Origin: Bacillota bacterium | GTDB taxonomy: Bacteria > Bacillota > Bacilli > Bacillales > Bacillaceae_B | Length of the DNA: 64,000 nt | Assembly: GCA_051750065.1 (NCBI GenBank) | Contig: JBNJJI010000006.1 | Coordinates: 137,146-201,145 of the forward strand | Direction of reading: 5' to 3' | Part shown: piece after piece, positions 8,117 through 63,465 of the stretch | Numbering within the stretch: the first letter of the stretch is position 1 | Layout of the letters: every line of letters begins with the position of its first letter | Position numbers and translations under genes: made by a program | The notes under the pieces: generated by a model | The model's input: the letters and a program-made list of their open reading frames with translations, nothing else | Told to the model about the DNA's origin: nothing | Databases searched by the model: none

Positions 8117-8300
8117 CGCTCTTTTCGTAAACTTTATTGTTATTTCGATAGAACTTTTAAAAAGGCTGTTTTCGCAAAGATTGGGGCTGTTGAATAGTAG
8201 GATTTCCGCTCCAGGCGCACGACTCCGCTCCAATCCCCCCTACGTAAGAGGGAAGAAGGGAAAATAGCATTTAAAAGCAACAATCTTTTAGAAAACAGCC
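8117..8300. mobile_element. MITE (GCTSTTTTCG-TIR family), composite copy with an extra internal TIR and a collapsed GC core
   Basis: Ends are cgctcttttcgtaaac... and ...cttttagaaaacagcc, with an internal ggctgttttcgcaaagattg at 8164. Flanked by TAAAAAAA at 8109-8116 and 8301-8308. Confidence 0.7.
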
Positions 8301-8316: not shown

Positions 8317-8346
8317 AAAGGCGCCTGTTCGAAAACAGGCGCCTTT
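8317..8346 (-). terminator. Intrinsic terminator downstream of the histidine kinase gene
   Basis: 13-bp stem aaaggcgcctgtt/aacaggcgccttt with a T-run on the minus strand. Confidence 0.7.
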
Positions 8347-8493
8347 GATGCGTATTGAGGCGAAAGACCGTGCGCCACATCGCACGTTGCTTATAAAGCT
8401 TGTCTGTCGGCTTACACAATTAGCTCATCGCTCAATAAATATAGCACGCTCAACAAAATTTTACAAGCTTTCTTTATATGGAAAATAGTTACT

Positions 8494-14976: not shown

Positions 14977-15288
14977 AAAAAACAAAAACCCCCTCGTCCA
15001 TAGATGTAAAGACATCTAAGGACGAGGGGGATAGCTCGCGGTACCACCTTAGTTCACTGAGGGCTCGCGCCATCAGCCTCATGAAGTACGGAATGCAGAA
15101 GAAACACATTCTTATACTGTGGCAATGATAACGGCTGCCAACTCCCGTTCCACCCTACACCTCATGGTTCGAATGAAAAGCTCAGAGATCATCTTCAATC
15201 AACTTTCCCCTTGCTTCTTTTCAGCTTCCGAAGCTCTCTGTAAAGGATAATCCTTGATTTACTCTTCTCTTCAACGCAAATAAGTATT
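14977..15288 (-). promoter_or_regulatory. T-box riboswitch leader, Met (AUG) specifier
   Basis: Minus strand carries Stem I gcgttgaagagaagagta and cagagagcttcggaagctgaaaag. Specifier is gaagAUGa (15190-15192). T-box aactaaggtggtaccgcg is at 15037-15054. Terminator is ccccctcgtcc/ggacgaggggg plus a U-run. Confidence 0.9.
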
Positions 15289-21936: not shown

Positions 21937-22797
21937 TTATTGAGCTTTTACTTTCTTTACCTCTCTTTTCTTCTTCGGAATCTTTGCTGCCGGTGCCTTT
22001 GCGGCTGGTTTCTTTTCTGTTTTCGGCTTCGTATTGTCAATAGAGGCCTGTAAGGCAGACATCAAGTCTGTTACATTAGCAGCAGGCGCTTTCTCTTTAG
22101 GCGTGACAAACTTTTCCCCAGTCTGTTTGGATTGAATCAATTCCATTAACTTCTTGCGGTAATCATCTTCATATTTTTCCGGCTGAAACTCAGTAGACAA
22201 CTGGTCGATCAGCATAATCGCTGTATCCAATTCTCTTTGACCGACTTCATCCTCTGCCGGAACATTCGGTACATCACCCGTTAGCCGGACTTCATCGGGA
22301 AAATGGATGGTTTCCATAACCATTGTGTTCTGATACACCCGTACCACAGCCAGTTGCTCCTTTGACCGCATCACAATTTTTGCTATGCCGACTTTGTGTG
22401 ATTCTACTAATGCTTTTCTTAATAAACTGTAAGCTTTCTTTCCTCCCTCATTGGGTGAAATAAAGTAGCTTCGGTTAAAATAAATCGGATCAATCTCATC
22501 AATTTTTATAAAATCAACAATTTCTACCGCTTTTTCCTCATCGTCATCTCTTAACTCCTTAATTTCCTCATCTTCTATCATAACGAACTTCCCTTTTGCA
22601 ATTTCATATCCTTTGACAATTTCTTCATGCTCCAAATTCTTTTCACATACAGGGCAAATTTTTTCATATTTAATCGGGGTATGACACTCACGATGGAGCG
22701 ACCTCATTTTAATATCTTTATCTTCAGTAGCAGCATGAAGCTTGATCGGAATGCTGACAAGACCGAAGCTGATGCTTCCTTTCCATATAGTGTGCAT
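21937..22797 (-). CDS. ku: Ku protein (NHEJ DNA-end binding)
   Basis: MHTIWKGSISFGLVSIPIKL Ku core with a Lys/Ala-rich C-terminal tail. Start at the third codon (ATG 22797), 6 nt after GGAGG. Confidence 0.95.
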   Translation of the reverse strand: MHTIWKGSISFGLVSIPIKLHAATEDKDIKMRSLHRECHTPIKYEKICPVCEKNLEHEEIVKGYEIAKGKFVMIEDEEIKELRDDDEEKAVEIVDFIKIDEIDPIYFNRSYFISPNEGGKKAYSLLRKALVESHKVGIAKIVMRSKEQLAVVRVYQNTMVMETIHFPDEVRLTGDVPNVPAEDEVGQRELDTAIMLIDQLSTEFQPEKYEDDYRKKLMELIQSKQTGEKFVTPKEKAPAANVTDLMSALQASIDNTKPKTEKKPAAKAPAAKIPKKKREVKKVKAQ

Positions 22798-22920
22798 GAG
22801 CATCCTCCAATTTAATTTGTCTTACTTTAATTTGGGGTATTATGCCGCCAGGCTATCCTATAAAAGTTCTGGAAATAGTTCTTCAGGGTCTGGGAATGCT
22901 AAGGAGAATCTTCTTACTTA

Positions 22921-24771
22921 GTGGTGATAACGTTGAAACCTATGCTTCCTACATTAGTTGAAGAAACACCGGTAAAAGGAAAGTGGTATTACGAAGTTAA
23001 ATACGATGGATTTAGAGGGATCTTAACCATCCTTTCTGAGAAAGAAATAAATTTGATCAGCAGAAATGGAAAAGAACTTCTTATTCAATTTCCTGAAATA
23101 AAGGATTATTTGGTGATGATGCTCTCAAAATATGAGTGGCCGCTTCCCATTGTACTCGACGGTGAAATTGTCTTATTAGAAAATGATATCAAGAGCAATT
23201 TCAGCGGTGTACAGACCAGGGGTAGGATGAAGACCCGAAAGAGCATACAAGAAGCAGCCGATCAAAACCCATGTACCCTTCTGGCATTTGACCTGCTTCA
23301 GCTAGCTGGAAATAGTTTGGCAAGCAACTCTTATATTGAAAGAAAAAAGGCATTGACTCAGTTGTTTCGTGAGAGAGAGATACCCTTGAAACCTGCTTAT
23401 GGATCATCTGCCCGACTGCAGATGATCCCTTTCTACGAAGAAAGCAGTGAAGTCAGGAAGTATGTCAGGGATTTTGATGGAGAAGGTTTGATTGCCAAAG
23501 AGGAGAACAGCCGGTGGGAAGAAGGCAGGCGAACATCCTCGTGGCGTAAATTGAAGAACTGGCGAAAAGCCTCTTGTATCGTTCTTTCTCATGACAGTCA
23601 TAATGGCTATTACAATGTCGGTGTATTCTATAAGGAAGAAATCATTTCAATCGGTGCCTTTTATTTTGGAATAAGTCCTGAAGAAAAAAATGCGTTGAAT
23701 TCAATCATTAAAGAAAATGCTTTTAAAATCGAAAAAGGCATATACCATATGCATCCGAGTCTTTGCGTAGAACTCAAATACCTTGAATGGTATGAGAAAC
23801 AGATGAGAGAACCTCATTTTCATCAATTTTTATTTGGTTCTAAGCCGGAAGAATGTACTTGGGAAAGATTGATGCAGGATGAAGCCTCACTTCCGGAATC
23901 TGTCGAGTTCACCCACCCGGATAAACCGCTTTGGAAATCGCCTTCCATCGACAAACTGCAGTTTCTCCGGTACCTGAGAAAAGCCTCCTCCCGGCTGTTA
24001 TTCTTTCTTAGGCAGCGGCCATTGACGGTCATTAGGCTTCCACACGGGATATTCGGAGATTCTTTTTACCAAAAGAACTCTCCTGACTATGCTCCTTCTT
24101 TTGTTCAGACCGTAAAAATCGAAAGCATCAATTACATTCTATGTGATGATTTGGAAACTTTGATGTGGCTTGGCAACCAACTTGCTGTTGAATTTCATAT
24201 CCCCTTCCAAAAAAACGGTTCAGAATATGTGAATGAAATAGTTTTTGATCTTGATCCGCCTTCAAGAGACTACTTTCATCTGGCAGTCAAAGCCGCACTG
24301 GAGATGAAAAAGCTTTTTGATCAAATGAAATTAATAAGCTTTATTAAAACTTCTGGAAACAAAGGATTGCAAGTTTATATTCCTATACAGGATGGCTACT
24401 CATGGAGCGACACTCATCTGTTTACTGAGTTCATAGCGAATTATTTAACCATCCAGTATCCTGAAGAGTTCACAACGGAAAGACTAAAGAAGAACAGACA
24501 TAACAGGTTGTATGTTGATTACATTCAGCATGCAGAAGGCAAAACCATCATCTGCCCTTATTCCCTCAGAGCGAATGAAGATGCACTTGTATCTGCACCA
24601 CTCTTTTGGGATGAAGTAAACGAAGAATTAAGACCAGAATTTTTCACAATGGAGACCGTTTTGGAGAGGCTGCAGAAGAAGGGCTGTCCTTTTGCAGGAT
24701 ACGAAGAAGCTAAAGAAAAGCAGAATATAGAAGAAATACTGATTTTTCTTAAAAGTAATAAAAATTTGTGA
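22921..24771 (+). CDS. ligD: ATP-dependent DNA ligase LigD (ligase plus primase-polymerase domains)
   Basis: Ligase motif I EVKYDGFR followed by a C-terminal LigD polymerase domain. Same architecture as B. subtilis YkoU. The exact start (GTG 22921, TTG 22933 or ATG 22942) is uncertain. Confidence 0.92.
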   Translation: MVITLKPMLPTLVEETPVKGKWYYEVKYDGFRGILTILSEKEINLISRNGKELLIQFPEIKDYLVMMLSKYEWPLPIVLDGEIVLLENDIKSNFSGVQTRGRMKTRKSIQEAADQNPCTLLAFDLLQLAGNSLASNSYIERKKALTQLFREREIPLKPAYGSSARLQMIPFYEESSEVRKYVRDFDGEGLIAKEENSRWEEGRRTSSWRKLKNWRKASCIVLSHDSHNGYYNVGVFYKEEIISIGAFYFGISPEEKNALNSIIKENAFKIEKGIYHMHPSLCVELKYLEWYEKQMREPHFHQFLFGSKPEECTWERLMQDEASLPESVEFTHPDKPLWKSPSIDKLQFLRYLRKASSRLLFFLRQRPLTVIRLPHGIFGDSFYQKNSPDYAPSFVQTVKIESINYILCDDLETLMWLGNQLAVEFHIPFQKNGSEYVNEIVFDLDPPSRDYFHLAVKAALEMKKLFDQMKLISFIKTSGNKGLQVYIPIQDGYSWSDTHLFTEFIANYLTIQYPEEFTTERLKKNRHNRLYVDYIQHAEGKTIICPYSLRANEDALVSAPLFWDEVNEELRPEFFTMETVLERLQKKGCPFAGYEEAKEKQNIEEILIFLKSNKNL

Positions 24772-33233: not shown

Positions 33234-33466
33234 AAATAAAAAACCCTGAGTGGTTGGAGCACTCAGGGAGATAGTCATTACTAAATAAGCGTATAAAAAT
33301 TTCTTTTTTTACGCGCTTTTTCCTTCTCCCATCCAGACTTTAACTGTCGGCCTTGGAGTTTCACCAAATCCACCGCCATTTGTTAAAATGACGGGTCACG
33401 GACTAAGAACAATTCATGTTCATCACCGCCGGTAGGGAATTTCACCCTGCCCCGAAGGAAATACTA
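33234..33466 (-). promoter_or_regulatory. FMN riboswitch (RFN element) with terminator
   Basis: Minus strand reads ttcggggcagggtgaaattccctaccggcggt...ccgacagttaaagtctggatgggagaagga. The terminator ccctgagtg/cactcaggg plus U-run lies at 33234-33268. Confidence 0.92.
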
Positions 33467-34288: not shown

Positions 34289-34520
34289 TCAGAAGTCACT
34301 CCTTAAGAGAGTTCTTTTCATAGTATGAAATAGCTAGAGAAAAAAGAACTCCTGAAAAAGGATGCTTCTTAAATAGAAGGATGTGGTAAAATATTCTAAA
34401 AACAGGTTGATTTATAGGAACACGCCTCGATGACAGGTGGCAGTCGATGAAAGATTAGAGAACCGTGAGATATTGCTATCTGGGAACATAACAGCCTTGC
34501 AATCTATGAGAATATCCAAA

Positions 34521-34723
34521 GGTTGTTTTCGCCAAGATTGTGGCTATTTAAAAGAAATGGATCTCCGCTCCAGGCGCGCGACTCCGCGGGGCGGGCGTTG
34601 AGCCTCCTCGGCACGCCTGCGGGGTCTCACCTGTCCCGCTACTCCCGCAGGAGGTCGCACGCCTTCCGCTCCATTCCGTTTATGTAAAAGGGAGAGAAGG
34701 ATAAAATAGCATTAAAAAACGGG
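34521..34723. mobile_element. MITE (short type) carrying the full GC-rich hairpin core
   Basis: Left TIR ggttgttttcgccaagattg, full core at 34559-34676, and a shortened right end (...aaaatagcattaaaaaacggg). Confidence 0.7.
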
Positions 34724-34910
34724 TGATCACTTGAAAAGTTACGATCCAAGGTCTTGGCATAATAAGTAAGTTCAGTATCTACGAAAGAGAAATAGAGCCT
34801 CCCCAAGGAAGCTCTATTTTCTGCTCATGAATTATATAAAAATCAAAAAAGTCTTTCTGCAGACTGTCTAATTTTAATGACCCTCTACTAGGCTGAAAAA
34901 ATTAATCAAT

Positions 34911-36739: not shown

Positions 36740-36854
36740 TTCCTTCTCCCCCTATAAACAAAAGACCGATTCTCTAACAGAACCGGCCTTGGTTTCTTTA
36801 CTATATTCTACATAAGTTTAATTTTTCCTAGGAGAATTCTCTTTTTTTGAAAAG

Positions 36855-36927
36855 TTGTTTTCGCATAGGTTGTTTCGATCAAAAAATGGAGTGCCGCTCC
36901 AGCCCTGCAACTCCTTAGGGGCTGTGT
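36855..36927. mobile_element. Truncated short-type MITE
   Basis: agttgttttcgcataggttg...ggagtgccgctccagccctgcaactcc. Its right part is interrupted at 36928 by the insertion site of the next element. Confidence 0.55.
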
Positions 36928-36935
36928 TTAACTAA

Positions 36936-37104
36936 TGCTGTTTTCGCATATATTGTTGCTTCCGGATATCCCCGGATACTAAGGGTTATCTCTCAAATCT
37001 GGGAGAGCCTCTCTTTTCTTTTCATGTTTACCAGGTTATTCCCGAAATTTTGTTTGTTCTTTCTGGAATTGGCGTCAAATAGCAGCATTGTTTACGAAAA
37101 GTGC
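36936..37104. mobile_element. 169-bp MITE (long type)
   Basis: Ends are tgctgttttcgcatat... and ...gtttacgaaaagtgc. Perfect 8-bp duplication TTAACTAA at 36928-36935 and 37105-37112. Confidence 0.88.
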
Positions 37105-37500: not shown

Positions 37501-37557
37501 CTCTTGAGAAATTTTGATGACTGGCGAGACCATGGTTACGTACCAACTGGAACTTAA

Positions 37558-37667
37558 CCCCGCAGGCACAGCCAAGGAGGCCAATCCAGCTCCAGCATCC
37601 CGTGGAGTCGTGCGCCTGAAGTGGAAATCCTTTTCTTTTCAACAGCCACAACCTTACGAAAAGACCC
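37558..37667. mobile_element. Truncated short-type MITE (reverse orientation) overlapping the 3' end of the ABC permease gene
   Basis: Reverse complement reads gggtcttttcgtaaggttgtggctgttgaaaagaaaaggatttccacttcaggcgcacgactcc...ctgcgggg. The TIR covers the last codons and stop of the 37654-38427 CDS. Confidence 0.65.
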
Positions 37668-38427
37668 TTTTGAAAAACAGGGGTGCCGACGCCATCAGAA
37701 TGAACATGATGCTGGCAGAAATGATTAACGTTATAGTTAAATCAAAGGACCAATTTTCTTTTACAAGGATCTCTGTTACGTAGAATGTTATCTGAGAAGG
37801 CATCCATTTTAATTGATTTGCAAGCATGCTTGAGAGAAATGTCATAAAAAGTGTTGTACTTAATGTCAAGAAGGCTGCCATACCCGGGGATGATGTCAGG
37901 CTGCTGAAGAAAATTGTCAACGTTACAATAAATGACAGCCAAAATCCGTACGCCAACATTGATTGAAAGAAATCGGCTGCTGTAATGCCATCAAATAATA
38001 AATTGATATAATACCAGCCTGAAGCCATTCCTATAAGATAGGAAACCGAGACAATGATCATTGCTGCAAACCATTTTGACAGAATGTAACCGGTATAGGA
38101 AACGGGTTTCACCAGCACAAGAGTGGCGCTTCCATTCTTTCTTTCTCCCGCCACAGTCCCCATAAAGCCCAGAACTATGACCAGAGCTCCCAGTGTGCTG
38201 TATTGGCCGATTACAGACAGAAGTATCTCTTGTGATGAAGGGGGCGGTATTTCAATGACTGCTCCTTCCGGAAGGTTTCCAACCGCATCCAAAATATCAG
38301 GCATATAATAAGCTGTCAGAGGCTCGGTTATCCCTAATAAAATGAAGACAAGCGGCATCCATATCCATTTGAAGTTCCTCTTAGATTCAAGCAATTCTTT
38401 CCTGAGTAGTACGGAAAATTGTTTCAT
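37654..38427 (-). CDS. ABC-2-type transporter permease
   Basis: 257 aa with six TMs, translationally coupled to the upstream ATPase. Confidence 0.85.
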   Translation of the reverse strand: MKQFSVLLRKELLESKRNFKWIWMPLVFILLGITEPLTAYYMPDILDAVGNLPEGAVIEIPPPSSQEILLSVIGQYSTLGALVIVLGFMGTVAGERKNGSATLVLVKPVSYTGYILSKWFAAMIIVSVSYLIGMASGWYYINLLFDGITAADFFQSMLAYGFWLSFIVTLTIFFSSLTSSPGMAAFLTLSTTLFMTFLSSMLANQLKWMPSQITFYVTEILVKENWSFDLTITLIISASIMFILMASAPLFFKRVFS

Positions 38428-41896: not shown

Positions 41897-41976
41897 GCTC
41901 CATTATTAATTAACTTTAGTATATTTATCTCTTTTTTTTAATATGGCTCTGTTAGTTAATGGTGTTGAACTTTAAA

Positions 41977-42068
41977 AGCTGTAGCCGCAAAGAGTTTGGC
42001 TGTTGAAAGGTAATGGATTCACGCTCAGACGCCCGGCCTTCTCGGCTTCATAAAAAGCGGAAACGGCC
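41977..42068. mobile_element. Degenerate short-type MITE
   Basis: agctgtagccgcaaagagtttggctgttgaaaggtaatggattcacgctcagacgcc...gcggaaacggcc. Confidence 0.4.
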
Positions 42069-50100: not shown

Positions 50101-50306
50101 TGGGGCGCTTGAACTAGAGGGCCCGCTATTTCTGCAGGAAGCCGTGCACCTGCAGCGAATATACCCTACGTAAAAAGAGAGTTCTCTCTAGGCAGGCTAT
50201 TAAGAAAACCTATTTCATTTGGTTTATCCTCAGGGTTGATTGGAGTTGCACAACTCGAAAGGAAGTCAACAGAATCAATAAAAAAACAACATTTTTTAAC
50301 AGAGCC
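50101..50306. mobile_element. Diverged MITE-family copy
   Basis: GC-rich left part; the segment ccctacgtaaaaagagagttctctctaggcaggctattaagaaa aligns with 62480-62520. Right TIR is caacattttttaacagagcc. Confidence 0.5.
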
Positions 50307-52241: not shown

Positions 52242-52288
52242 TGTTGTCTGATTTAGTTAGATGTTGAGGTGCACCTGATTTTATAAAA

Positions 52289-52366
52289 GGGCTGTTTTCG
52301 CAAATGATTTTGTTATTTAAAAAGCAGGTGATTTCCGCTACAATCAACCCATCTTTAGAAAAGAAC
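52289..52366. mobile_element. 78-bp mini-MITE (two TIRs plus a short core remnant)
   Basis: gggctgttttcgcaaatgatt...gatttccgctacaatc...atctttagaaaagaac. Flanked by TTATAAAA and TTATAATT (6/8). Confidence 0.6.
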
Positions 52367-52523
52367 TTATAATTACATAAGATATTATGTTATTAATTAT
52401 TTTACGTTTATTACCACAGTCAGCGCTTTATAATTCTTCATTCTCTTCAAATTATCTCGTCTTTACCGCTTTGCATGTGACTGTTAATTATCATCCCATT
52501 AAAACCCAACGATCTTTACGTTT

Positions 52524-60483: not shown

Positions 60484-60516
60484 AAAATAAAGCCTGGAAG
60501 AATTCCACTTCCAGGC
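60484..60516 (-). terminator. Intrinsic terminator of the carboxypeptidase gene
   Basis: Stem cctggaag/cttccagg with a T-run on the minus strand. Confidence 0.65.
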
Positions 60517-60524
60517 CAGGCGTA

Positions 60525-61424
60525 TTAAATCTCTTTCACATTGTTGAAATATTCTTCAAGCGTCCATTCATTTTCATAGATGACCTGCGCAGGTTCTTTG
60601 CCAACGAATCTATAGTGCCACGGTTCATACTGATATCCTGTAATTTCCTCTTTGCCTCTTGGATATCTTAGAATGAATCCAAATTTGTGTGCATTTTCTT
60701 TCATCCACTTTCCTTCAGCAGTATTTTCCAGCTCTGTGCTAACTTGAAAGTTATTGCTTTTGCTGGATATATCCATTGCAAGACCAGATTGATGCTCACT
60801 ATTACCAGGAGGAGCGACAGCTTTTACAGCTTTTTCTTCACCAAACTGTCTGATTTCCCTCTCCAGGAGCGCTTGCTGATATTCATAGGAACGATATCCT
60901 GAAATGGCGGTCAAGTATTGTCCGTCTTCTTCGGCAGCCGCAAACATCTCCTCCAAAGCTTTTGCTGCTTCCTCACGTATATATGCTTTTTCAATATCCT
61001 GGTTACCGAAAACAAATGGGATATCCGGCCTTACCAGGTCCTCAGGTTTATAATCTCCAGTCAACCCGAATTCTTTGTTAACCAAAGCCAAGGTATTTTC
61101 GGGATTTGTAATGACCTTTTTACCATCCACCGTTTCAACATTATTGAAAAATTGGGATTCAAGCTGCAAGGAAGGCGGCACCTCTTCTTCATTTTCTGAA
61201 GGAGATTCTTCACTTGGCGTTTCTGTACTTTCGTTGTTTTCTCTCTCTGAACCAGCCTCTTCTTCCCGACTTTCCTCTTCGTTGACTGGTTCATTCTCCG
61301 GCTCGCTATTATCTTCATCCTGCGCTTGTTCATTGGAGCTCAGTAAATCTTTTGTCCAGTCTTCTGCCTGCTGACATCCTGTAAGCAGCAGCACAGCTAA
61401 CGGCACCAAGACTAACTTCTTCAT
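60525..61424 (-). CDS. M15B (VanY-type) D-alanyl-D-alanine carboxypeptidase lipoprotein
   Basis: Lipobox LLTGC, acidic linker, and motifs SEHQSGLAMD and EPWHYRF. Confidence 0.88.
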   Translation of the reverse strand: MKKLVLVPLAVLLLTGCQQAEDWTKDLLSSNEQAQDEDNSEPENEPVNEEESREEEAGSERENNESTETPSEESPSENEEEVPPSLQLESQFFNNVETVDGKKVITNPENTLALVNKEFGLTGDYKPEDLVRPDIPFVFGNQDIEKAYIREEAAKALEEMFAAAEEDGQYLTAISGYRSYEYQQALLEREIRQFGEEKAVKAVAPPGNSEHQSGLAMDISSKSNNFQVSTELENTAEGKWMKENAHKFGFILRYPRGKEEITGYQYEPWHYRFVGKEPAQVIYENEWTLEEYFNNVKEI

Positions 61425-61737
61425 TTATTTCACCTTCTCTATCATTGTCTAAACCATCATACCATTTCTATTAAAATCTGTAATCCGTAGAAATTTTCTA
61501 AAAATGCTGCTCTTTCTATATGCGTTGCTCAAACGCCTTTAAGAATTGCTCTGTTAGTCATTAATGTTGTTATTAACAGCTTTCCACAAAGAGTTAAACG
61601 GTCTTGTCCAGCCTTTAATACTTTTACACCTTCTGTTAAACCGTCGAGTCGTTCTTCGATTAATACATAACATAGCGCTGATCCATCTTCTCAAAGCGTT
61701 CATCTATTTTTTAAAAACGCTCGTCTACTTGGTAGAT

Positions 61738-62357
61738 GTAGTATAAAAGGGGGTTAAACAGCATTAAGTGTAGGGATTGGTGGGTTTGATGCAGTATAAA
61801 AGCTCTTTAAACAGCATCAACCATAAGGATGTGTGGATTTGATGCAGTATAAAAGCTCTTTAAACAGCATCAACCATAAGGATGTGTGGTTTTGATGCAG
61901 TATAAAAGCTCTTTAAACAGCACCAACTCTAGGGATTGGTTGATTTGGTGCAGTATAAAAGGGGTTTAAACAGCATTAAGTGTAGGGATTGATGGGTTTG
62001 ATGCAGTATAAAAGCTCTTTAAACAGCATCAACCATAAGGATGTGTGGTTTTGATGCAGTATAAGAGGGTTTTAAACAGCACCAACTCTAGGGATTGGTT
62101 GATTTGGTGCTGTTTAAAAGGGGTTTAAACAGCATTAAGTGTAGGGATTGGTGGGTTTGATGCAGTATAAGCAACATCGCTCAACACAAGCAGATATCCA
62201 AGAGTTAACCCGACAATAAAGATAATTTGCAGTATAAAAGGAGTTTAAACAGCATCACGTATAGGGATGTGAGGGCTTGATGCAGTATCAAAGCTCTTTA
62301 AACAGCACCAACTCTAGGGATTGGTTGATCTGATGCAGTATAAAAGCTCTTTAAACA
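61738..62357. repeat. 53-bp-periodic tandem hairpin array, 12 units
   Basis: Unit starts: 61738, 61791, 61844, 61897, 61950, 62003, 62056, 62109, 62162, 62229, 62282, 62335. Each unit has a 26-nt conserved part GCAGTATAAAAGnnnnTTAAACAGCA and a 27-nt part drawn from 3-4 classes. Confidence 0.95.
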
Positions 62358-62430
62358 TATGGATAATAACAAGGCCGCAAAGTTAACTGCTGGTGAGTTA
62401 GCATATTGTTGGGAACAGTTTATGAATAAT

Positions 62431-62583
62431 AGTATGTTTTTAGTTGTTGAACAGTAATGGATTTCCGCTCCAATCCCCTTACGTAAAAGGGGCAGTTCTC
62501 TAAACGCAGGCTATTAAGAAACACTAATTTATATGGTTTCAATAGGGTTCTTGGGCTTATCCGTGGAGTACTTTAACGGAGCC
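62431..62583. mobile_element. Diverged MITE-family copy
   Basis: agtatgtttttagttgttgaacagtaatggatttccgctccaatcccc...ctttaacggagcc. Confidence 0.55.
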
Positions 62584-62721: not shown

Positions 62722-62753
62722 AAAAAAGCCTTGCCGGTATCTCCCGGCAAGGC
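62722..62753 (-). terminator. Intrinsic terminator of deoD
   Basis: 10-bp stem gccttgccgg/ccggcaaggc with a T-run on the minus strand. Confidence 0.8.
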
Positions 62754-62763
62754 ATCTGAGTAT

Positions 62764-63465
62764 TTATTTGATCGCTGCTTCAAGTGCTACTTCAATCATC
62801 TCATTGAATGTTGTTTGTCTTTCTTCCGATGTTGTTTCTTCACCTGTAAGGATATGATCTGAAACTGTAAGAACAGACAATGCTTTTCGTCCGTATTTCG
62901 CAGCTAATGTATATAACGCAGACGTTTCCATTTCTAGAGCAAGCATGCCGTATTGAGCCCATTTTTCATGTTCAGCATTATCATTATAGAACATATCTGC
63001 TGTGAATACATTTCCTACTTTCAGATTAAGGCCTTTTTCCTCTCCCGCATCATATGCTCTTTTCAAAAGAGAGAAGTCAGCGGTTGGAGCATAATCAATT
63101 CCGTTGAATGTCAGTCGGTTCATTTGAGAATCAGTAGAAGCACTCATCGCCAGGATGACGTCTCTGACTTTTACATCCTTTTGGATGGCTCCACATGTTC
63201 CAACACGGATTAAGTTCTGTACGTTATAGCTTTGCATAAGTTCATTGATATAAATGGAGATGGAAGGCACTCCCATACCAGTTCCCTGAACAGAAATACG
63301 TTTGCCTTTGTATGTACCTGTGTATCCGAACATGTTTCTTACCTCATTATAACACACAGGGTCTTCCAAAAATGTTTCAGCGATATATTTCGCACGTAAA
63401 GGGTCTCCTGGAAGCAGGACCGTTTCTGCTATTTCATTTTCTTTAGCGCCAATATGTATACTCAT
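62764..63465 (-). CDS. deoD: Purine nucleoside phosphorylase DeoD-type
   Basis: 233 aa, a clear DeoD sequence ([11 protein letters not shown]...EMETSALY). Confidence 0.95.

Follow-up and report, generated by a model that had tools for sequence, protein, structure and literature searches.

The repetitive extragenic palindromic sequences and bacterial interspersed mosaic elements (REP/BIME) of Escherichia coli and its relatives, and the BOX A-(B)n-C elements of Streptococcus pneumoniae, place imperfect palindromes in tandem between a terminator and the next promoter. The number of modules is variable, with up to ~12 REPs in BIME-2 and up to ~8 repeats of the 45-bp boxB unit, and elements of both kinds are probably selfish. 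Bacterial intergenic minisatellites, which can appear as false positives of programs that search for clustered regularly interspaced short palindromic repeats (CRISPR), have a short conserved repeat alternating with a segment of similar size. In the present study we examined an array of 53-bp hairpin units in a 64,000-nt stretch of a Bacillota bacterium genome (Bacillaceae_B; GCA_051750065.1, contig JBNJJI010000006.1, positions 137,146 to 201,145), hereafter the window. The array lies between the terminator of deoD and the promoter region of a VanY-type peptidase gene, with no cas gene in the window, as an earlier note made from the sequence had stated. That note had proposed a structured non-coding RNA, a protein-binding array or a fast-evolving minisatellite. 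Our analysis places the array among intergenic hairpin minisatellites that look like CRISPR, an already known kind of element, made mildly intriguing by a sequence core that recurs at non-orthologous loci.

Architecture of the array and comparison with CRISPR

The array consists of head-to-tail 53-bp units at 61733-62358, or 620 bp (61738-62357) when counted by unit starts, and its plus strand is defined as the one on which the 26-mer reads GCAGTATAAAAG....TTAAACAGCA. Allowing up to three mismatches, the 26-mer GCAGTATAAAAGNNNNTTAAACAGCA has 11 matches, all on the plus strand, starting at 61738, 61791, 61844, 61897, 61950, 62003, 62056, 62109, 62229, 62282 and 62335; there were none in 100 shuffles and none outside the array anywhere in the 64-kb window. 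Starts are spaced exactly 53 bp apart from 61738 to 62162, and the register returns at 62229, 62282 and 62335. The lone 67-bp step between these two runs belongs to a twelfth, truncated unit starting at 62162 of which only GCAGTATAA is left, followed by ~58 unique nt; this insert (unit 62162-62228) has no second copy in the window or in related loci. Tandem Repeats Finder (TRF) reported the array as the sole tandem repeat with a score of at least 60 across the window, at a period of 53 (8.2 copies, 81% matches, no indels) and again at a period of 159 (2.7 copies, 88%). The parts of the array are as follows.

61733..62358, plus strand: whole 53-bp tandem array, made up of 10 full units, a truncated one that carries the unique insert, and a partial one at the end
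61738..62161, plus strand: eight contiguous full units, A B B C A B C A, in exact 53-bp register
61811..61826, plus strand: an example of the 16-nt core CTTTAAACAGCATCAA
61844..62161, plus strand: two 159-bp higher-order blocks (B-C-A), the most recent amplification
62162..62228, plus strand: truncated unit GCAGTATAA and ~58 nt of unique sequence
62229..62334, plus strand: two more full units, of classes D and C, the C unit with a broken stem
62335..62358, plus strand: terminal partial unit GCAGTATAAAAGCTCTTTAAACA, ending right at the ATG of a DUF3231-like fragment

The units fall into classes according to their variable segments, in the order A B B C A B C A [insert] D C followed by the partial unit. 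Two 159-bp blocks, 61844-62002 and 62003-62161, are 95.6% identical, from which we infer that the last amplification copied three units together. The twelve-unit periodicity with its single 67-bp step, the unit classes and their order, and the A-B-C higher-order repeat had all been described correctly from the letters of the sequence, save that the centre variant GGTT (unit at 62056) was missing from the list of variants. Each unit chains two overlapping imperfect palindromes within 53 bp, the first formed by TTGATGCAGTATAAA and TTTAAACAGCATCAA about a 5-nt centre, and the second by GCATCAA and TTGATGC about a variable 19 nt. An 11-nt part of the core, TTAAACAGCA(T/C), is invariant in all 10 full units of the window.

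No open reading frame (ORF) of at least 30 aa lies wholly within the array in the ORF list of the window; the earlier note had stated that there were none of 60 aa or more. A coding repeat, suggested by 159 being 3 x 53, was rejected on the same ground and because stops occur in all frames. As a side observation, each class B unit (61786-62062, plus strand) is readable as a 17-codon mini-ORF, MQYKSSLNSINHKDVWF, whose UGA stop overlaps the next AUG (UGAUG); it is probably a by-product of the TTGATGC motif, and no convincing Shine-Dalgarno sequence precedes it.

CRISPR arrays, including the cas-less RliB-type of Listeria, resemble the window array in repeat and interval size, unit number and partial palindromy. 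The direct repeats, a 26-mer at an exact 53-bp period, lie within the CRISPR criterion of ~23-55 bp repeats, and the array could be flagged by CRISPR finders on size; the practical value of the present analysis is in this respect a clear negative, as the array is not a CRISPR. Unlike those of CRISPR and RliB-type arrays, its intervals are homologous to one another and to those of a related array in Bacillus sp. P14.5 (described below), and it has neither protospacers nor cas genes. The ten 27-nt "spacers" have a mean pairwise identity of 75% (range 59-100%), compared with 29% expected of unrelated sequence of the same composition, and 7 of the 10 are distinct. They align column by column with the corresponding segment of the P14.5 units, and the 27-nt segments therefore belong to the repeat. 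A blastn comparison (word 11) of the whole array with 50,697 phage and 72,556 plasmid records gave no match at E<=0.01. A Pfam scan of all window ORFs of at least 150 aa revealed no Cas, transposase, partition, recombinase or toxin family, the matches being ordinary chromosomal genes (rib operon, metS, Ku/LigD, transporters, spore-coat and cell-wall genes), and no cas gene was found in the syntenic regions of relatives, including the genes beyond deoD. The description of the array as CRISPR-sized but not CRISPR-like, and the expectation that its segments would lack protospacers, are thus both confirmed.

A related array at another locus and the insertion at deoD

A genome collection that does not contain the window's own genome was scanned with GTATAAAAGNNNNTTAAACAGCA, and the only meaningful match was to Bacillus sp. 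P14.5, all others being single chance matches. This strain carries a seven-unit array with a period of 52-53 (L001 5745-6092) between the terminator of a gene for a 58-aa protein and the arsR-arsB-arsC-arsD-arsA operon. The same array is present in the same place on a 4.77-Mb contig of R. vietnamensis GCA_050379455.1 (L088 7374-7721), with zero differences from that of P14.5; over 8 kb of the array locus, identity between the genomes is 98%. Its neighbours in both genomes (YdeJ, the 58-aa protein and the ars operon) differ from those of the window array (deoD, the M15 peptidase, YitT and CtpB). The arsR control region of P14.5 also contains face-to-face sigma-A-like matches (L001 6225-6276), TTGAAA-17-TATTAT on the plus strand (10/12) and TTGATA-16-TATAAT on the minus strand (11/12).

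Units from the window and from P14.5 align across the entire period, and their consensus sequences share 35 of 53 positions. The shared positions include the unbroken 16-mer CTTTAAACAGCATCAA, a run of a length reached in 0.7% of match-pattern shuffles (P ~0.007), and the conservation profiles of the two arrays are weakly correlated (Spearman 0.27, P=0.053). The leftmost P14.5 units are degenerate but still carry a window-like variable segment (GTATAGGAGGATTGAGGG compared with GTATAGGGATGTGAGGG), which fits homogenisation of the interior and decay at the edges. Relative to flanking genes, the array is co-directional in P14.5 and anti-directional in the window. The arrays belong to a small family of repeats in the Rossellomorea vietnamensis group, whose location differs from species to species. 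In metagenome and viral collections, 76 loci matched TTTAAACAGCA-N35-50-TTTAAACAGCA, but all were satellites of no relation to the array, or a phage gene; the YdeJ locus of R. aquimaris is not syntenic and contains no unit, and a literature search for the repeat strings found nothing relevant.

We compared the syntenic deoD-VanY-YitT-CtpB region in five relatives (Bacillus sp. P14.5, R. vietnamensis, Bacillus sp. SCS-153A, a JGI contig and B. salacetis; L008, L009, L011, L089 and L090). The window belongs to a Rossellomorea-like genome. Its VanY/M15 peptidase is 100% identical to a protein of a "Bacillota bacterium" metagenome-assembled genome, 82% identical to that of Bacillus sp. P14.5, 79% to that of R. 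vietnamensis, and 73-77% to those of further Rossellomorea-like genomes. The deoD-VanY spacers of the five relatives are 150-858 bp long and contain no 53-bp unit. In the alignment, homology to the relatives stops at ~61493, just upstream of the VanY promoter region, and resumes at ~62713, at the deoD terminator, which makes the array part of a ~1.2-kb window-specific insertion. Absence from all relatives, which the earlier note had linked to a neutral minisatellite, accordingly holds for the site but not for the repeat family, which is present elsewhere. The insertion and its surroundings contain the following features.

60525-61424, minus strand: VanY/M15 peptidase gene
61425..61493, minus strand: conserved VanY/M15 upstream region, left edge of the insertion, containing a promoter-like site at 61484-61456 (ATTACA-17-TATGAT preceded by TG)
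61494..61737, no strand assigned: left part of the window-specific insertion, without homology in relatives
62359..62436, plus strand: 26-codon fragment MDNNKAAKLTAGELAYCWEQFMNNSM resembling the N-terminus of DUF3231 (weak Pfam match, E=0.039, below the cut-off)
62437..62540, plus strand: short copy of a dispersed intergenic element, with its core GGATTTCCGCTCCA at 62459
62728..62753, minus strand: intrinsic terminator of deoD, conserved in relatives; right edge of the insertion
62764-63465, minus strand: deoD gene

The fragment MDNNKAAKLTAGELAYCWEQFMNNSM starts exactly at the end of the array and is cut off by the copy of the dispersed element. It is probably what remains of a gene; as the fragment itself is too short for a query, homologues were sought with a padded one, and none was found. 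The dispersed element is modular, with a 5' module close to AAAAGGCTGTTTTCGCAAAGATTGTGGCTGTTGAAAAGTAATGGATTTCCGCTCCA and, in its long forms, a GC-rich hairpin (...GAGCCTCCTCGGC...CCCGCAGGAGGTCGCACGCCTTCCGCTCCA). Its core GGATTTCCGCTCCA matches 6 times in the window compared with 0.44 expected, and copies lie at ~8140-8300, 34500-34740, 36820-37000, 37540-37720 (minus strand), 41943-42026, 52260-52400 and 62437-62540, with a related piece at 50164-50225. Within the insertion, 61545-61595 also resembles the 5' module of the copy at 41943-41996. Outside the window the element occurs at L011 4500-4800 and L008 6340-6860, and it is present in the deoD-VanY spacer of SCS-153A and the VanY-YitT spacer of P14.5; evidently, these spacers accumulate repeats. 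Copies at the same spacers differ between species, indicating present or past mobility of the element, and no Rfam match to it reached the gathering threshold. Derivation of the 53-bp unit from this element was considered and rejected, the similarity between them being only of the scale of AAACAGC.

Several further observations were made elsewhere in the window. A match to the small RNA BsrF (8320-8431, minus strand; 98.4 bits, gathering score 50) adjoins a copy of the dispersed element. A flavin mononucleotide (FMN) riboswitch upstream of a ribD-ribE-ribBA-ribH operon (33317-33463, minus strand) and a T-box leader upstream of metS (15015-15283, minus strand) are ordinary. Divergent genes for Ku and LigD, the latter with ligase and primase-polymerase, occupy 21937-24771; Ku and LigD are the non-homologous end-joining pair typical of spore formers. 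A sub-threshold Rfam match to SdsR/RyeB at the 3' end of the peptidase gene (60484-60558, minus strand; 29.4 bits against a gathering score of 38, E=0.024) is most likely due to chance.

A lineage-restricted minisatellite as the preferred reading

The reading we prefer, and hold with about even confidence, is that the array is a lineage-restricted, palindromic, non-coding minisatellite that expands by unequal exchange or slippage, undergoes concerted evolution, and has no shown function for the host. Among the three options of the earlier note this is the best supported, by the empty site in five relatives, the recent duplication, the degenerate edges and the surrounding repeat debris; the truncated unit and the degenerate edge units are signs of decay. 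Under this reading the array would have grown where it stands, its units undergoing unequal exchange or replication slippage with one another, latterly as a three-unit block of 159 bp; concerted evolution would keep the interior units uniform, and decay would affect the units at the edges and a broken one. The ~1.2-kb stretch between the deoD terminator and the VanY promoter is insertion-prone, and has also collected fragments of the dispersed element and a gene remnant. The 16-nt core CTTTAAACAGCATCAA may be the sequence needed for the maintenance or recognition of the repeat itself, in the selfish manner of REP/BIME or BOX modules, and we would not take its conservation as evidence of service to the host.

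The window array shares further properties with minisatellites that are mistaken for CRISPR, namely about a dozen units, an intergenic position, lack of cas genes, similar "spacers" and a higher-order duplication. Unlike a purely neutral minisatellite, it has its variation strongly concentrated outside the 16-nt core, which is kept in a second species elsewhere. It resembles REP/BIME and BOX elements in consisting of tandem imperfect palindromes between a terminator and the next promoter, and in sitting among modules of another dispersed element. It differs from REP/BIME in having no dispersed solitary copies in ~145 kb and in its units being all direct rather than alternating, and there is no RAYT or transposase among the window ORFs of at least 150 aa (Pfam). 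BOX elements have conserved terminal modules, whereas the two arrays described here differ in the points of the unit at which they start and end, and their flanks show no similarity.

Several results weigh against the minisatellite reading. A conserved core and period at different loci in different species are not explained by a purely neutral array. The 16-nt core is kept between these species, in contrast to the remainder of the unit and to all neutral spacer DNA, which have diverged. Within each array, variation is also lower at columns where the two species agree in consensus (summed entropy 0.68 compared with 1.44 bits). Together these results point to constraint on the core, which could reflect a host function. 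The period of 52-53 bp, or about five helical turns, is likewise kept in both species. The related array is base-for-base identical, with no change in copy number, in two genomes of the R. vietnamensis group that are 98% identical over the locus, which lends no support to hypervariability or to the word "fast-evolving" in the earlier description. The differing points of the unit at which the two arrays begin and end give no defined mobile-element terminus. A search with a hidden Markov model of the unit, over the 64-kb window together with ~80 kb from related loci, found no solitary unit or further array; within this limited sample, the result is a poor fit to a high-copy REP-like element.

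Other identities proposed for the unit were rejected. Tandem sigma-B promoters were suggested by the class A sequence GTTTAA-N15-GGGATT, which resembles the sigma-B consensus GTTTAA-N12-15-GGGWAW but is absent from the P14.5 units. Tandem minus-strand sigma-A promoters feeding VanY (TTGATG-16-TATACT, 9/12) are no commoner than in shuffles, and their -10 is lost in P14.5. The attC-like appearance of the unit is a resemblance of GTTTAAC/GTTAAAC only, with no integrase and no cassettes. A defined mobile element with target duplication was discarded in view of the differing boundaries of the two arrays.

Alternative explanations and biological meaning

The conserved core keeps alive two alternatives, a protein-binding array and an RNA, which we regard as somewhat unlikely even when taken together. 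In the former, rather improbable in itself, the array would be a set of phased DNA sites for a sequence-specific and probably dimeric protein, whether centromere-like, iteron-like, or a nucleoid or regulatory landing pad, with the imperfect palindrome TTGATGCAGTATAAA-N5-TTTAAACAGCATCAA recurring every 53 bp on one face of the helix; a 35-bp stretch of the unit, TTGATGCAGTATAAAAGCTCTTTAAACAGCATCAA (TTGATGC...GCATCAA), was considered as the putative binding unit. Plasmid F offers a parallel in its sopC centromere, where SopB binds an inverted repeat that is present in each of 12 tandem repeats of 43 bp; the window array similarly has twelve phased direct repeats of ~50 bp with an inverted repeat in each. 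The possibility of protein binding survives from the earlier note because the two species have in common the 16-nt core, uninterrupted while the rest of the unit has diverged, and have kept the 52-53 bp phasing of ~5 helical turns. The unit at 62104-62138 forms a perfect palindrome with 11-bp arms (TGCTGTTTAAA/TTTAAACAGCA), and independence of orientation fits a role at the level of DNA. Against such a role, five relatives do without the array at this locus, there is no plasmid match, and neither array has a ParA/ParB, Rep or other candidate binding-protein gene beside it; unlike sopC, the window array is chromosomal and lacks adjacent partition genes or a plasmid homologue. The left arm of the palindrome is moreover degenerate. 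Although 72% of cells are paired compared with 31-42% when the arms are slid, most window units have 2 A·A mismatches, 9 of 15 pairs depart from pairing by non-standard cells only, and in P14.5 only ~7 of 11 positions pair.

The RNA alternative, which we consider quite improbable, is a transcribed multi-hairpin sponge. A plus-strand transcript would present motifs resembling GGA or Shine-Dalgarno sequences (UAGGGAU/UAAGGAUGU loops; AAAGGAG/AAAGGGG centres) to an RNA-binding protein such as CsrA, which is antagonised by FliW in Bacillaceae; a minus-strand transcript would instead carry UCCC/CUCC motifs that pair with ribosome-binding sites. Like the CsrB/RsmY/RsmZ sponge RNAs, the plus strand of the window array has serial hairpins with GGA loops, the GGA lying in the loop of the GCATCAA/TTGATGC hairpin in 10/10 full units. 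The sequences of classes B and D (AUAAGGAUGU, AUAGGGAUGU) appear to be near the CsrA consensus RUACARGGAUGU obtained by systematic evolution of ligands by exponential enrichment (SELEX). This hairpin is one of two alternatives that share the 7-mers of the unit; it is 83% paired compared with 20-62% when slid, and class A has the T-G pair reported before, which is tolerated, as U·G, only on the plus strand. In P14.5, an 11/12 sigma-A-like promoter (6276-6249, minus strand), within the AT-rich arsR control region, points into the array.

These features are offset by others. The loop motif is not conserved, the P14.5 loops being CAGAUU without GGA, and the promoter, terminator and Rfam match of the known sponge RNAs were looked for without result: a consensus scan found no plus-strand promoter-like site at the array and no terminator on either strand except that of deoD, and Rfam gave no match at E<=1 over the window or P14.5 arrays, its matches above the gathering threshold in the window lying elsewhere. 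Three minus-strand promoter-like sites inside class B units, with 9/12 matches, are no commoner than in shuffles, and the promoter-like matches in general lie within the range of shuffled sequence. Folds of single units as RNA were no more stable than shuffles on either strand (z -0.3 to -1.4). The co-varying stems reported earlier are correct as statements about the 7-mers, but do not exceed shuffles as evidence of structure. A single pair of the GCATCAA/TTGATGC hairpin has both of its bases changed, from U-A to C-G, in two distinct rows, a result matched by 60 of 500 shuffles. Of the three class C units, two have the changed form GCACCAA...TTGGTGC, and pairing is broken in the one at 62282, which has GCACCAA...CTGATGC. 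Class C units were copied within the 159-bp block, so the double change counts as one event, and the apparent covariation is reduced to a single duplicated change. Array orientation relative to the neighbouring genes is also opposite in the two species. The structured RNA put forward in the earlier note is consequently left without positive support.

Two further explanations are very unlikely. Tandem non-coding repeats of tens of nucleotides are a hallmark of ToxI, CptI and TenpI, and the array has this form, but a type III toxin-antitoxin RNA antitoxin (ToxI-like) is opposed by the much greater variability of the window units than of ToxI repeats and by the lack of a toxin-size ORF after either array: the 26-codon remnant follows in the window, with no ORF of more than 32 aa downstream, and arsR in P14.5. 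An assembly artefact might be suspected because the window comes from a metagenome-assembled genome with a single assembly, but the assemblies of two isolates, made independently and one of them with the locus on a 4.77-Mb contig, agree base for base in the related array, and the repeat family is therefore real. A degenerate or orphan CRISPR with its cas genes elsewhere or lost would accommodate the 26-bp, partly palindromic repeat, the 27-bp interval and the dozen or so units, but it is exceedingly improbable and effectively refuted by "spacers" that are alike and shared with the P14.5 units, by phage and plasmid records without a match, and by the absence of cas from the window and the relatives' syntenic regions.

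The residual interest of the minisatellite lies in the recurrence of its family at a different locus in a sister species, with the 16-nt core and the same period, which suggests sequence-specific recognition by something. It is fairly unlikely that these arrays define a new family of repeats in the Rossellomorea group, CRISPR-sized but cas-less, in which the core CTTTAAACAGCATCAA, set in 53-bp hairpin units, is the recognition site of a dedicated protein. That protein might bind DNA or be a recombinase, and would then move the arrays and maintain them, or it might bind RNA and be titrated by a transcript with many hairpins. We know of no CsrB-type sponge RNA in Bacillaceae, and the titrating version would be the first. 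Should a binding protein or a transcript be found, the arrays would become a tractable model in cultured R. vietnamensis, one that could show how hairpin repeat arrays arise, move and persist in Firmicute chromosomes.

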